A DNA stretch of 64,000 nt from Escherichia phage vB_EcoM_JS09. The notes under the pieces were generated by a model that saw only the letters and a list, made by a program, of their open reading frames with translations, was not told where the DNA came from and searched no databases. The translations under genes were made by a program, and so were the position numbers. Shown in pieces: positions 16,643 through 46,576 of this stretch. Each line of letters begins with the position of its first letter. Position 1 is the stretch's first letter. The DNA is taken from sequence record NC_024124.2; one strand, given 5' to 3'.

Positions 16643-17055
16643 TGAGATATAGCCTTCGTTGTTTTATCGCAGCTTTAGTTTTTGCTATTATTCCATTCAT
16701 TTGGAACAGCCAGAATACTTACATGGAAACTAAAGTAATTCCTGTGGAGGTAGTGGAATTAATCTCAGGCCAATCTACAGGAAAATATTCTAAATTAGAA
16801 TTTATTGCAGTCTATAAAGATGAGCAAGGACGAGTTTTTGACAGGCGTGTATCGCCATCGTTTTATACGCTTCTGAATAAAGGTGATACGATAGCTATAG
16901 AAATTCGTGAGATGGATATCAAACAAACTACTAAAGATAACTTGATTTGGTTCTTTGGTACAGTGTTGTTGGTTTCTATCTGTATCACAGGTTTTATTAC
17001 ATGTATTGTATTTGGCATTGCATATTTAATCGATGAAAGGAAAAATAATGTTTAA
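16642..17055 (+). CDS. Membrane protein
   Basis: Hydrophobic N- and C-terminal helices; TAATG coupling. Confidence 0.5.
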   Translation: MRYSLRCFIAALVFAIIPFIWNSQNTYMETKVIPVEVVELISGQSTGKYSKLEFIAVYKDEQGRVFDRRVSPSFYTLLNKGDTIAIEIREMDIKQTTKDNLIWFFGTVLLVSICITGFITCIVFGIAYLIDERKNNV

Positions 17056-17311
17056 AGTGTACGGGTACGACTCTACTATTCATAAATGCATTTATTGCGA
17101 TAATGCGAAACGATTGCTGACTGTTAAGAAACAGCCATTCGAATTCATTAATGTTATGCCAGAAAAAGGTGTTTTTGATGATGAGAAAATTGCTGAGCTT
17201 CTGGTTAAGCTTGGACGTGAATCACAAGTCGGATTGACTATGCCTCAAGTGTTTGCTCCTGATGGAACTTCGATCGGTGGCTTTGACCAACTACGAGAAT
17301 ATTTTAAATGA
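17048..17311 (+). CDS. nrdC: Glutaredoxin/thioredoxin NrdC
   Basis: MFKVYGYDSTIHKCIYCDNAKRLL... matches recalled T4 NrdC; in-frame ATG 17048 of ORF 17033-17311. Confidence 0.85.
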   Translation: MFKVYGYDSTIHKCIYCDNAKRLLTVKKQPFEFINVMPEKGVFDDEKIAELLVKLGRESQVGLTMPQVFAPDGTSIGGFDQLREYFK

Positions 17312-17664
17312 CATATTCATTAAATCTTAAAGATTTCCAAGATGTATACGAAGTTTGTGCCAATGAACTTGGTCCTGATGCTCCAACTATTATTGAAGTT
17401 TTAAATGTGCTCCCTTCATCATTAGCTTACGAAGCCAAATCATGGGGTTGGAGCGACACTGTCGTTCGTGATGACCTTTACGTCCTGATGAACGATATGA
17501 TGGTTAAAAAGGCAGAACCGGTTGCACCAATGGTTACCATTACCGTTGAAGAATATAATCGCCTGCAAGCCATTGAAGAGCTTCTGTGGAACATTGAATG
17601 TGACCTGCCGTCAGGGCTAGAATCCTGGATTGATTATGAAGAGCTCAATAAACTCCGGGGTTAA
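17308..17664 (+). CDS. Hypothetical protein
   Basis: 118-aa ORF with ATGA coupling. Confidence 0.5.
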   Translation: MTYSLNLKDFQDVYEVCANELGPDAPTIIEVLNVLPSSLAYEAKSWGWSDTVVRDDLYVLMNDMMVKKAEPVAPMVTITVEEYNRLQAIEELLWNIECDLPSGLESWIDYEELNKLRG

Positions 17665-17792
17665 ACCGTGGTATTCGGCTCGATGGGAGACAGTCGAGCC
17701 AGACGTCGAAACAGTTTACAATGACGAAGAAACGTGTTATGATGAACCTTCAATAAATGAATTAATTGATATGGAAATGGGAAGAGATTATT

Positions 17793-17963
17793 ATGCAAGT
17801 TAAATTATTATACCGTTTATTAAAAAATGGCAAGCATGATTGGTATTTGCTTATTAAAACCGATCCGAATTTTTTCTCTGGACAACCATTTACAGTTCGT
17901 CCTACTAAACGTCAGCTTCGCAAAGCTAAACGTTCTCATCGTAACTTTTATAGAGAATATTGA
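17793..17963 (+). CDS. Small basic protein, RPTKRQ-motif family
   Basis: C-terminal FTVRPTKRQLRKAKRSHRNFY; SD gggaagag. Confidence 0.45.
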   Translation: MQVKLLYRLLKNGKHDWYLLIKTDPNFFSGQPFTVRPTKRQLRKAKRSHRNFYREY

Positions 17964-17964
17964 T

Positions 17965-18378
17965 ATGAATATTTCTGAAACTCGCGGTAAATGGTTCAAG
18001 ATTGTTAAAGAAGACGAAGAACTCCAAGATAAGTTTCCTGAATTAAAGAAAGATACGATCATCAAGGTAATTGGTACTACTACCGAAGATGGTTATGGCG
18101 ACCATGGCATTATCGAAGTGATGTTGAACACAGGTGAGAAACTTTGCATCTATGACCGTGATACTTCTCTTTGGTGCTTCTGGGAATCCCATTCAATAGA
18201 TGAACTCGAAGAAATTGACCAAGTAGTTTGTGATGGTGGACTTGGCGAATTCGAAGGTGAACGTATTTCTTATGCTTTAGCTAAATTAGCCGCCCAAGAA
18301 AATAATGACGGTTATGAAGGTAATCTGATGCAAGCCGCAGCGGAATACATTGAATATTTAGAAAGACGTTTAAGTTAA
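17965..18378 (+). CDS. Hypothetical acidic protein
   Basis: ATG 17965 inside ORF 17827-18378. Confidence 0.45.
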   Translation: MNISETRGKWFKIVKEDEELQDKFPELKKDTIIKVIGTTTEDGYGDHGIIEVMLNTGEKLCIYDRDTSLWCFWESHSIDELEEIDQVVCDGGLGEFEGERISYALAKLAAQENNDGYEGNLMQAAAEYIEYLERRLS

Positions 18379-18387
18379 GGGCTTATT

Positions 18388-18567
18388 ATGAAAACTGCAT
18401 TATTTTTTGGCGAAAGAACAAACGGTCAAAAATCTTGGAAATTTGTTATAATTGGTGCTCCAAACAATCCGAACATGAGGACTTCAATCATTTCGGTAAC
18501 ACGTCCTACTAAAAGAATGATTCGCCAATACAAACGTTTCCATCGTGACTTTTATAACATTTATTAA
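18388..18567 (+). CDS. Small basic protein, RPTKRQ-motif family
   Basis: 59-aa ORF (not in track) ending SVTRPTKRMIRQYKRFHRDFY; SD aaggg. Confidence 0.45.
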   Translation: MKTALFFGERTNGQKSWKFVIIGAPNNPNMRTSIISVTRPTKRMIRQYKRFHRDFYNIY

Positions 18568-18569
18568 AT

Positions 18570-18577
18570 TATAAATA
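18570..18577 (+). promoter_or_regulatory. Late promoter TATAAATA upstream of gene 49
   Basis: Exact TATAAATA; followed by inverted repeat ACCCTTA...TAAGGGT; T4 gene 49 is known to have late expression. Confidence 0.55.
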
Positions 18578-18605
18578 CCCTTATCTAATATGGTAAGGGT
18601 TTATT

Positions 18606-19079
18606 ATGTTATTATCTGGCAAATTATACAAAGAAGAAAAACAAAAATTTTATGATGCACAGAATGGTAAGTGTCCTATTTGCCACCGTGAATTAGACCC
18701 TGATGTTCAAGGTAACCATCTTGACCACGACCATGAATTAAACGGGCCAAAAGCCGGTAGAGTTCGTGGATTACTCTGTAATCTGTGCAACGCAGCAGAA
18801 GGCCAAATGAAGCATAAGTTCAACCGTTCCGGTCTTAAAGGACGTGATGTCGACTACCTCGAATGGCTTGAAGCTCTTCTTGCTTATTTGAAACAAGATT
18901 ATTCTGATAATAATATCCATCCTAATTTTGTTCCAGACAAAACTAAAGAGTTCTCAAGACTAGGTAAAGAGGAAATGATGGCTGAGATGCTTCAAAGAGG
19001 ATTTGAATATAATGAATCTGATACCAAAACACAATTAATAGCTTCATTCAAAAAGCAGCTTAGAAAGAGTTTAAAATGA
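18606..19079 (+). CDS. 49: Endonuclease VII (Holliday-junction resolvase)
   Basis: MLLSGKLYKEEKQKFYDAQNGKCPICHREL...HLDHDHELNGPKAG matches recalled T4 gp49; TATAAATA upstream. Confidence 0.9.
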   Translation: MLLSGKLYKEEKQKFYDAQNGKCPICHRELDPDVQGNHLDHDHELNGPKAGRVRGLLCNLCNAAEGQMKHKFNRSGLKGRDVDYLEWLEALLAYLKQDYSDNNIHPNFVPDKTKEFSRLGKEEMMAEMLQRGFEYNESDTKTQLIASFKKQLRKSLK

Positions 19080-20893
19080 AAATTGAAAAAGAAATTGAAG
19101 GATTAATTCATAAAACTAATAAAGATCTTTTGAACGAGAATGCTAATAAAGATTCTCGTGTTTTTCCAACTCAACGGGACCTTATGGCTGGTATTGTGTC
19201 TAAGCACATTGCCAAAAATATGGTCCCGTCTTTTATTATGAAAGCACATGAAAGCGGAATTATCCATTTCCATGATATTGATTATTCCCCTGCTCTTCCA
19301 TTTACTAATTGCTGTTTAGTAGATTTAAAAGGAATGCTTGAAAACGGGTTTAAGCTAGGTAATGCTCAAATTGAAACGCCTAAATCGATTGGTGTTGCTA
19401 CTGCAATTATGGCACAAATTACCGCACAGGTTGCTTCACATCAGTACGGCGGAACGACTTTTGCTAATGTAGATAAAGTACTTTCTCCTTATGTTAAACG
19501 CACCTATGCAAAACATATTGAGGATGCAGAAAAATGGCAAATCGCTGATGCGTTGAATTATGCCCAATCTAAAACAGAAAAAGACGTATACGATGCATTT
19601 CAAGCTTATGAGTATGAAGTAAATACTCTTTTTAGCTCAAACGGTCAAACGCCTTTTGTAACAATTACATTTGGTACTGGAACTGACTGGACTGAACGAA
19701 TTATTCAGAAAGCAATTCTTAAAAACCGCATTAAAGGCCTTGGTCGTGATGGAATAACTCCTATTTTCCCTAAACTTGTTATGTTCATTGAAGAGGGTGT
19801 CAATCTTTATAAAGACGACCCGAACTATGATATTAAGCAGCTTGCTCTAGAGTGTGCAAGCAAAAGAATGTATCCTGATATTATTTCAGTTAAGAACAAT
19901 AAAGCTATCACTGGTTCATCTATTCCTGTTTCTCCAATGGGTTGTCGTAGTTTCTTGAGTGTATGGAAAGATTCGACTGGAAATGAAATTCTTGATGGAC
20001 GTAATAATCTTGGTGTTGTAACACTGAATCTTCCTCGTATTGCGTTAGATTCTTATATTGGAACACAATTCAATGAACAGAAATTTGTTGAGCTATTTAA
20101 TGAACGAATGGATCTGTGTTTTGAAGCCTTGATGTGTAGAATTAGTTCTTTAAAGGGTGTTAAAGCAACTGTTGCTCCTATTCTTTACCAAGAAGGTGCA
20201 TTCGGGGTTCGTCTTAAACCTGATGACGATATAATTGAGTTATTTAAAAACGGTAGAAGTTCAGTGTCCTTAGGATACATTGGTATTCACGAATTGAATA
20301 TTCTTGTCGGTCGTGATATTGGACAAGAAATTTTAACTAAAATGAATGCTCATCTTAAGCAGTGGACTGAAAGAACCGGTTTTGCTTTTAGCTTGTATTC
20401 TACTCCTGCTGAAAACCTGTGCTATCGCTTCTGTAAACTTGATACCGAGAAATATGGAAGTGTAAAAGATGTTACTGATAAAGGCTGGTACACTAATAGT
20501 TTCCATGTTTCAGTAGAAGAAAATATCACTCCGTTTGAAAAGATTTCTCGCGAAGCCCCATATCATTTCATTGCGACTGGCGGACATATTTCTTATGTTG
20601 AACTTCCTGATATGAAAAATAACCTAAAAGGTCTTGAGGCTGTATGGGATTATGCTGCACAACATTTAGATTATTTTGGTGTTAATATGCCAGTAGATAA
20701 ATGTTTTACATGTGGAAGTACTCATGAAATGACTCCTACTGAAACCGGATTTGTTTGTTCTATTTGTGGAGAAACTGACCCTAAAAAGATGAACACCATA
20801 AGAAGAACATGCGGTTATCTTGGAAATCCTAACGAACGCGGATTTAATCTCGGCAAAAATAAAGAAATCATGCATAGGGTTAAACACCAATGA
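19076..20893 (+). CDS. nrdD: Anaerobic ribonucleoside-triphosphate reductase
   Basis: 605 aa uninterrupted; C-terminal glycyl-radical and Cys-rich region; matches recalled T4 NrdD. Confidence 0.95.
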   Translation: MKIEKEIEGLIHKTNKDLLNENANKDSRVFPTQRDLMAGIVSKHIAKNMVPSFIMKAHESGIIHFHDIDYSPALPFTNCCLVDLKGMLENGFKLGNAQIETPKSIGVATAIMAQITAQVASHQYGGTTFANVDKVLSPYVKRTYAKHIEDAEKWQIADALNYAQSKTEKDVYDAFQAYEYEVNTLFSSNGQTPFVTITFGTGTDWTERIIQKAILKNRIKGLGRDGITPIFPKLVMFIEEGVNLYKDDPNYDIKQLALECASKRMYPDIISVKNNKAITGSSIPVSPMGCRSFLSVWKDSTGNEILDGRNNLGVVTLNLPRIALDSYIGTQFNEQKFVELFNERMDLCFEALMCRISSLKGVKATVAPILYQEGAFGVRLKPDDDIIELFKNGRSSVSLGYIGIHELNILVGRDIGQEILTKMNAHLKQWTERTGFAFSLYSTPAENLCYRFCKLDTEKYGSVKDVTDKGWYTNSFHVSVEENITPFEKISREAPYHFIATGGHISYVELPDMKNNLKGLEAVWDYAAQHLDYFGVNMPVDKCFTCGSTHEMTPTETGFVCSICGETDPKKMNTIRRTCGYLGNPNERGFNLGKNKEIMHRVKHQ

Positions 20894-45856: not shown

Positions 45857-46174
45857 ATGAAAACCATCGATTGTAAAGCAGAATTTAAGATTTTTTATCA
45901 CGGTTCAAGTAGTTCAGCTAACATCGAAAACATGCTTTGTCCTCCTGAAGAAACAGGAGTTCTGTCTGAAACAGGACGTAAGAAAAACTTGGATCGTGTA
46001 TTCTTTACCGAAGATATCGGTTTAGCAAAGATTTATGCAGGACGAGCAGCACGCTCTTATGGAGGTGAACCACGTCTCTATCGAGTAATTTCTCCGGTAG
46101 ATGTAGTTCAAATGAATAATACTAAAGGTGCTACAGTTTATCACGCTGAATGGGCATTTTGCGAGGAAATATGA
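45857..46174 (+). CDS. Small ART-fold-like protein (HGS motif, Tpt1/KptA-like)
   Basis: IFYHGSSSS...GRAARSYGGEPRLYRV resembles the catalytic half of Tpt1/KptA ADP-ribosyltransferase-fold proteins; weak. Confidence 0.35.
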   Translation: MKTIDCKAEFKIFYHGSSSSANIENMLCPPEETGVLSETGRKKNLDRVFFTEDIGLAKIYAGRAARSYGGEPRLYRVISPVDVVQMNNTKGATVYHAEWAFCEEI

Positions 46175-46362
46175 GCAAATTAACTAAAGTTACTTTTATT
46201 GGCTGGTTTAAAAATGATAATACGTTCACTAAAGATATCATGTTATCAGGTGACCGTGAAGAAATCGAGTGGGTTGCGGTACAACTTGCTGAAGTGAACA
46301 AAGCATTAGTTAAAGCATTTGTTAATGACGAGAAAGTTTTTGAAGCTGATTTCAGAGGATAA
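46171..46362 (+). CDS. Hypothetical protein
   Basis: ATG 46171 after SD gagga; ATGA overlap. Confidence 0.4.
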   Translation: MSKLTKVTFIGWFKNDNTFTKDIMLSGDREEIEWVAVQLAEVNKALVKAFVNDEKVFEADFRG

Positions 46363-46363
46363 T

Positions 46364-46576
46364 ATGTATTCAACTGTGTTTAAACCATCAACATACGAAT
46401 TTGCATCAACTACACAATGGAAAGCTCTTATTCTGGAAGGATGGGAACTAATGATGGACTGTGAAGCATCTGAAAAGTTTCCACACGGCAAAGTGGACTT
46501 CGTTAAATTTGCTGTACGTCCGACTAAACGACAGATTCGTCAAGAAAAACGCAAATTTCGCAAAAGTTTAAAATAG
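46364..46576 (+). CDS. Small basic protein, RPTKRQ-motif family
   Basis: C-terminal FAVRPTKRQIRQEKRKFRKSLK. Confidence 0.45.
   Translation: MYSTVFKPSTYEFASTTQWKALILEGWELMMDCEASEKFPHGKVDFVKFAVRPTKRQIRQEKRKFRKSLK

Follow-up and report, generated by a model that had tools for sequence, protein, structure and literature searches.

The window that we analysed, a 64-kb stretch of DNA taken as a whole, belongs to an RB69-like T4-type phage (Mosigvirus). Over positions 17000-19100 it is 99.5% identical to the Escherichia phages PNJ-6, PNJ-9 and SQ17, and 861 T4-type phage records match this interval; SA79RD, a close annotated relative, is classified as Mosigvirus (RB69 group). Our analysis concerns three short genes. 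Two of them, here called A and B, lie in the order nrdC, a 118-aa ORF, an acidic gp49.1-like ORF, A, pin, B, gene 49 (endonuclease VII) and nrdD, while the third, C, lies 28 kb away, next to dmd. The features that matter for what follows are these:

17630-17803, + strand: gp49.1-like ORF, acidic, 57 aa, pI 4.1, with an 11-nt overlap with the start of A.
17715-17743, + strand: early-promoter-like site of T4 type (TTTACA, 17 nt, TATGAT, TG-extended), a consensus match at 10/12 positions.
17793-17963, + strand: paralogue A, a 56-aa DUF7279/TifA-family protein read from ATG, directly upstream of pin; RPTKR motif at 17898-17912.
17965-18378, + strand: pin, inhibitor of the host Lon protease, between A and B (Pfam Inhibitor_I24, E 3.4e-47).
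18388-18567, + strand: paralogue B (RB69ORF087c type), a 59-aa DUF7279/TifA-family protein in the interval between pin and gene 49; RPTKR motif at 18502-18516.
18570-18600, + strand: late-promoter box TATAAATA (18570-18577) with a 9-bp, terminator-like hairpin (18577-18600), in the B/gene 49 interval, assigned from sequence.
46150-46362, + strand: dmd, antitoxin of RnlA/LsoA, co-operonic with tifA (Pfam Dmd, E 3.2e-21; phrog_2102).
46364-46576, + strand: C, that is tifA (gene 61.4) in its RB69 allele, 70 aa from ATG, ToxN inhibitory factor A; RPTKR motif at 46517-46531 (R52-R56).

The initial annotation had pointed to three ORFs of 56-70 aa sharing a basic C-terminal motif, RPTKRQ(I/L)R, and the ORF translations contain all three, at the positions given above and with the tails that it quoted. 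A scan for the pattern [RK]P[TS][KRS][RK] in all six frames of the 64-kb window gives exactly three matches, one each in A, B and C. A family HMM run against 1265 stop-to-stop segments of at least 25 aa also picks out A, B and C only (E 2e-28, 5e-17 and 5e-17, values that are circular for these three since the model was partly built from them); neither the motif scan nor the HMM finds a fourth copy in the six frames of the window, where the next best segment scores E 0.05. All three proteins match Pfam DUF7279 (PF23945), whose curated gathering score is 24.5 bits, A with 54.5 bits (E 1.1e-14), B with 53.8 bits (E 1.8e-14) and C with 72.1 bits (E 3.5e-20), and the homologues recovered by database search carry PF23945 as well. 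Among the PHROG families, A (E 5.8e-27) and B (E 1.8e-30) fall in phrog_3272 and C in phrog_2375, two families that cross-hit. The PT cap and basic cluster are found in each of the three, as RPTKRQLRKAKRSHR in A, RPTKRMIRQYKRFHR in B and RPTKRQIRQEKRKFRK in C, and a set of residues is invariant across A, B, C and four B-type homologues, namely Met1, the Trp of strand 2, the Pro at the hairpin tip and the residues of R-P-T-K...R..KR..R.

The BLAST similarity of A and B to C spans only about 18 residues. A and B themselves align over their full length with 36% identity (E 1e-11), so that their N-terminal halves, described earlier as different, are divergent indeed and yet not unrelated. From the DUF7279 matches, the PHROG cross-hits, the end-to-end alignment of A with B and the invariant residues we conclude that the three proteins are related by homology and do not merely share basic tails; A, B and C are almost certainly paralogous members of the TifA (DUF7279) family and real genes. 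The family appears to be a narrow one. A word-indexed homologue search gave 5, later 20 matches, all of them proteins of T-even-type phages, and an exhaustive profile search among 1.84 billion representatives gave 29 clusters at 50% identity and no functional clue. NCBIfam holds no match for A, B, C or their neighbours, and a PDB sequence-profile search returned nothing. For A and B no DNA-binding fold was recognised, nor was the alpha-beta-beta-beta-alpha fold with recognisable likeness to solved dsRBDs that would mark a dsRBD.

Copy C is TifA. It is 100% identical to RB69 gp61.4 and begins one base past the stop codon of dmd. It matches the published TifA_RB69, and we put the slightly different sequence printed in Table S2 (PMC10853763) down to PDF text extraction, since C and the RB69 GenBank entry agree throughout. 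Gene 61.4 owes its present name, tifA, to Srikant et al. 2022 in eLife (PMC9391042), who described the dmd-tifA operon and reported that T4 escaped the type III toxin-antitoxin system toxIN through amplification of dmd-tifA, that plasmid-borne toxIN is overcome by T4 simply via a higher dosage of TifA, and that TifA neutralises ToxN and co-precipitates with it, the RB69 allele being the stronger inhibitor. Near tifA in T4 lie two anti-toxin genes, dmd and adfA (61.2), and the TifA authors proposed an anti-TA island there. The function of the family, which had been called unknown, is thus known for C, as TifA neutralises the ToxN endoribonuclease of toxIN (PMC9391042).

For C, the earlier suggestion that the basic tail binds nucleic acid or ribosomes has a direct counterpart in experiment. 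Guegler et al. 2023 in NAR (PMC10853763) found that TifA binds RNA via a PT-capped basic helix and co-purifies with 16S rRNA and ToxN, and that the substitutions P53A/T54A and K55A/R56A/R59A each abolish both RNA co-purification and rescue from ToxN. When we count along C, the residues R52, P53, T54, K55, R56 and R59 fall exactly on the RPTKRQIR picked out in the initial annotation. The published AlphaFold model of TifA comprises a sheet of three strands, a loop of about 20 residues that protrudes and, at the C-terminus, a basic helix with P53-T54 as its cap (PMC10853763). According to the same study, heterogeneous RNA co-purifies with TifA alone, which binds short RNAs with little apparent sequence requirement; the KD of TifA_RB69 goes from 2.3 uM down to 0.36 uM for RNAs of 15 to 45 nt; and in vitro TifA binds short ssDNA and dsDNA with an affinity similar to that for RNA, although the nucleic acid that co-purifies with it is sensitive to RNase and not to DNase. 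The authors concluded that non-specific coating of RNA is not TifA's mode of action (PMC10853763). Published work further shows that a hairpin around residue 41 tunes the inhibition of ToxN, with the hairpin region implicated in target specificity, and that six other TifA homologues neutralise none of the ToxN or TenpN toxins tested. These six homologues imply that DUF7279 members with targets still unassigned are already documented. Ten proteins were tested by Guegler et al. 2023 (PMC10853763), none of them of the A or B type; the longer 'TifA' of vB_EcoM_005 was among those that they tested, and we find that this phage also encodes a B-type protein.

The motif noticed in the window is therefore the RNA-binding element, defined by experiment, of a phage protein already known for counter-defence, and the family with its motif is already characterised via TifA; what is new is that A and B are further, uncharacterised members. 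Our literature search turned up no test of A or B and no paper that names them as relatives of TifA (one match to ORF087c was left aside), and the word 'paralog' is absent from both TifA papers (PMC9391042 and PMC10853763). The point added here is that an RB69-like phage can have up to three TifA-family members and that relatives of B occur also in T4-like and JS98-like phages.

The ATG starts of A and B are those annotated in relatives and are preceded by purine-rich, Shine-Dalgarno-like sequences, and the genes are tightly packed, the stop codon of A lying one base before the ATG of pin and B starting nine bases past the pin stop. The promoter-like site at 17715-17743 lies inside the gp49.1-like ORF, upstream of A-pin-B; it is a consensus match only and is annotated as an early promoter in SA79RD. 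The late promoter TATAAATA, again a consensus match and annotated in SA79RD, marks together with the hairpin the right border of the B cassette, a border that is kept in phages without B. Comparison with orthologues of 85-95% protein identity gives 9-14 synonymous and 3-8 non-synonymous differences for A (dN/dS 0.07-0.11) and 10-17 synonymous and 5-9.5 non-synonymous differences for B (dN/dS 0.08-0.12), in the same range as pin (0.06-0.17). A dN/dS of about 0.1 implies that A and B are maintained as protein-coding genes under purifying selection.

This bears on the simplest rival explanation, that the resemblance of the tails arose by chance or that A and B are non-coding or decaying ORFs. Such a view could appeal to the shortness of the proteins, to the limited BLAST similarity to C and to a frameshift in A in the RB69 reference record. 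However, the Pfam matches cover the full length of the domain (54 bits against a cut-off of 24.5), A and B can be aligned throughout, the 9-17 synonymous changes per pair accompany a dN/dS near 0.1, and intact ORFs are found in 144 (A) and roughly 300 (B type) records. Together the Pfam matches, the A/B alignment, the dN/dS values and the intact ORFs refute this explanation, and we regard its remaining probability as close to nil.

How similar are A and B to TifA? They share with it the Pfam family, the R-P-T-K-R...R...KR..R motif, a predicted fold of sheet plus basic helix, small size, basic charge and an early-gene setting. The AF2 model of A (pLDDT 88.1) has strands at 2-9, 15-24 and 27-33 and a helix at 39-55, that of B (pLDDT 87.8) has strands at 2-9, 15-22 and 31-36 and a helix at 42-58, and in both the helix directly follows PT. 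This layout, compared by description, is that published for TifA, a similarity that is partly built in, as the input was a shallow family alignment of 20-21 sequences that included TifA sequences. A has a pI of 10.8 and a net charge of +11, B a pI of 11.4 and a net charge of +10, while the pI of TifA is 9.9. In A and B the N-terminal part is shorter. The two proteins are 11-14 residues shorter than TifA, with 16 residues before the conserved Trp as against 26, and the interval from Trp to RPT is 18 residues in A and 21 in B as against 24 in TifA. Their hairpin is unrelated in sequence to that of TifA and shorter by 6 residues in A and 3 in B. A conserved Pro can be aligned at the hairpin (P40 in C, P25 in A, P28 in B), and a tentative, alignment-based equivalent of TifA residue 41, which is H41 in C, is Asn in both A (N26) and B (N29). 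The genes also differ in setting, tifA lying immediately downstream of dmd in an early operon and A and B flanking pin 28 kb away; adjacency to dmd is a feature of the orthologue and not of the wider family. Likewise, neutralisation of ToxN is published for the RB69 TifA allele, that is, for C, and does not define the wider family, in which six homologues fail.

The initial annotation had made the family depend on the motif recurring in related phages, and it is found in hundreds of them. Among 50,697 phage records searched with tblastn, A occurs at 80% identity or more in 144; five A-carrying records were examined individually and all five are Mosigvirus. B or B-type proteins (49-100% identity) account for roughly 300 of 357 records matching by tblastn, the remainder being cross-hits to A, and TifA-type proteins are present in 638 records. 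The B type spans Mosigvirus, Tequatrovirus (PP01) and Dhakavirus (JS98, IME540), and in all six of the loci examined from these genera it lies directly upstream of gene 49. A scan of viral contigs, in which matches were confirmed with B as query and which thus reports B-type loci only, showed no contexts beyond T-even-type genomes.

A, B and tifA each behave like a cassette that can be removed. AV113, NicPhage and mar005P1 lack exactly B, the difference being a 193-bp indel located between the pin stop and the late promoter of gene 49. In T4 (NC_000866, 46897-47382), compared with PP01 (locus 1055-1677), a 137-bp deletion took the end of pin and the first approximately 42 codons of a B-type paralogue and fused the remnants in frame. 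As a result the B type contributes its C-terminal 15 residues (MIQQYKRLHQMFYNT) to the end of T4 Pin, and this remnant explains the extra C-terminal tail of T4 Pin, which has 161 aa as against 148 aa in PP01. In the RB69 reference (NC_004928, 48375-48546) an insertion of one base near codon 11, beside an A-run, interrupts A, and the annotation there is limited to a 38-aa ORF089c; the frameshift reflects either true pseudogenisation or a sequencing error in a homopolymer. In ATK47 (locus 640-800) tifA is cleanly missing, so that dmd is followed by the next intergenic region, and A and B are retained. In an even sample of Mosigvirus records, about half have a tifA-sized gap of about 206 bp (82% coverage) while retaining A, in agreement with 67 RB69-type TifA matches among the 158 records that match the locus. 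B is moreover the most divergent segment of the nrdC-49 locus among near-identical Mosigviruses: nucleotide identity is 86-92% in B and 96-99% in A, pin and gene 49, and the dS of B, 0.34-0.75, compares with 0.05-0.08 for pin. Since dN/dS for B is still about 0.1, this divergence looks like allele exchange by recombination rather than positive selection.

According to a 2026 study (PMC13096335), OLD defence leads to segmental amplification of the pin-nrdC.2 locus in T6, and the OLD inhibitor is gp49.2 and not gp49.1, gp49.3, NrdC or NrdC.1. A and B occupy the stretch of the window that corresponds to this T-even pin-nrdC.2 locus, and the window contains no homologue of T4 49.2 or 49.3. A and B sit in a locus now known for another anti-defence gene, and the model phage T4 has lost both of them.

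What might A and B do? In the published view of TifA, RNA is bound through the C-terminal helix and ToxN contacted through the face formed by sheet and hairpin, and the authors propose that ToxN is thereby trapped on abundant RNA such as 16S rRNA (PMC10853763), which would spare the phage transcripts. Homology, predicted fold and motif suggest that A and B would bind RNA in the same manner, through their PT-capped helix, and we consider this likely. Their turnover and genomic context suggest in addition that they may be accessory counter-defence or host-takeover factors which tether or block an RNA-associated host protein. For a counter-defence role as such we see the chances as evenly balanced. 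Three things count against it: the surroundings of A and B (pin, endonuclease VII, nrdC, nrdD) do not form a purely anti-defence locus, variation in presence and absence is typical also of dispensable genes unconnected with defence, and a dN/dS near 0.1 lacks the mark of diversifying selection that might be expected at an interface engaged in an arms race. The divergent hairpin and the failure of the six homologues point to a partner distinct from the ToxN that TifA neutralises, a proposal that we make tentatively and hold to be possible rather than probable. From family membership through to the counter-defence role, the reading of A and B as RNA-tethered counter-defence proteins of the TifA family is one that we moderately favour.

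The most direct alternative is that A and B are additional inhibitors of ToxN itself, acting on the same target as TifA to raise dosage or to cover ToxN variants of the K111R type that escape TifA, and so taking the place of gene amplification. The family, the predicted fold and the RNA-binding motif are common to TifA, extra copies would be selectable because the dosage of TifA alone lets T4 beat plasmid toxIN, and both genes persist in Mosigviruses without tifA, such as ATK47. Nevertheless the hairpin region, which tunes the action on ToxN, is 3-6 residues shorter in A and B and unrelated in sequence, and six full-length homologues that are closer to TifA in architecture fail on all ToxNs tested, and we therefore judge this alternative improbable. 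A second possibility is a general modulating role in which A and B bind RNA or ribosomes, for instance as an RNA chaperone, an mRNA stabiliser or a factor in translation or host shutoff, with no part in evading defence. They are strongly basic (pI 10.8 and 11.4), TifA alone binds heterogeneous RNA with little apparent sequence requirement, and they lie in an early-gene setting beside gene 49, whose translation in T4 is controlled by an RNA hairpin. Their frequent clean loss in close relatives, however, argues against a housekeeping role in infection, and TifA is, according to its authors, not a non-specific coater of RNA; we regard such a role as unlikely, though it deserves consideration.

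Binding to DNA, whether as small nucleoid or transcription modulators or as accessory factors of endonuclease VII, could be argued from the in vitro binding of TifA to short ssDNA and dsDNA as well as RNA, and from the position of B beside gene 49 in three phage genera. Yet the nucleic acid found with TifA is RNase-sensitive and DNase-insensitive, phages without B, T4 included, have a fully functional endonuclease VII, and a DNA-binding fold was not recognised in A or B, so that we consider this explanation very improbable.

Returning to RNA-tethered counter-defence, one may speculate further that the TifA scaffold is a modular inhibitor platform tethered to RNA, in which the invariant helix would provide the anchor on RNA and the variable sheet and hairpin would pick the target. 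One and the same Mosigvirus would in that case be equipped with three proteins of this design (TifA, A and B), directed against different RNA-associated defence nucleases, and A-pin-B would be the fossil of a segmental amplification. We think this extended picture rather unlikely as it stands. If it were true, A and B would neutralise defence systems yet to be identified, and the fossil amplification would resemble those observed in experiments at dmd-tifA and pin-nrdC.2. More generally, A and B bear on the question of whether the mechanism of TifA, the trapping of a toxin on RNA, reaches beyond ToxN.

It is useful to set these proteins beside known systems. Dmd (T4 gp61.5) is, like TifA, a small protein that the phage makes early and that neutralises an endoribonuclease toxin of the host, but it belongs to an unrelated family and fold and inhibits by direct protein-protein contact, with no requirement for RNA binding described in the cited papers. 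Guegler et al. 2023 (PMC10853763) drew an analogy between TifA and HIV-1 Vif-RNA-APOBEC3, where RNA also serves as the glue that holds a host antiviral enzyme inactive; there is no homology, and the analogy is one of mechanism only. The anti-OLD protein gp49.2 of T2, T4 and T6 shares with A and B the genomic neighbourhood, in a locus amplified under defence pressure, while the protein itself is unrelated to them (PMC13096335).

Some further observations concern the neighbouring genes and the wider family. We considered whether the 118-aa ORF upstream of A (17308-17664) might be a relative of T4 gp49.2 (anti-OLD) or gp49.3, and found no similarity to either. Residues 64-118 of this ORF match phrog_3402, annotated as 'antitoxin from a toxin-antitoxin system' (E 1e-32), and the ORF has a sub-threshold Pfam match to the T7 Gp5.9 RecBCD inhibitor (E 0.016). 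Many distant DUF7279 members carry a C-terminal extension ending in a conserved SWEGIHCD(I/V)xGL or IDxLG-like motif; T4 TifA has a related tail, FVTCDYAEILK, and A, B and RB69 TifA are without such an extension. TifA_RB69 (46562-46576) and endonuclease VII (19065-19079) both end in RKSLK, which we treat as probably due to chance, the shared DNA run being only 10 nt (AGTTTAAAAT). The gp49.1-like ORF (pI 4.1, net charge -9) and the strongly basic A form an overlapping pair of acidic and basic genes. Finally, the translation starts of B (18374-18390) and of gene 49 (18592-18608) are nearly alike, reading TAAGGG(C/T)TTATTATG, and the copy at gene 49 is located within the 3' arm of the hairpin downstream of the late promoter TATAAATA.
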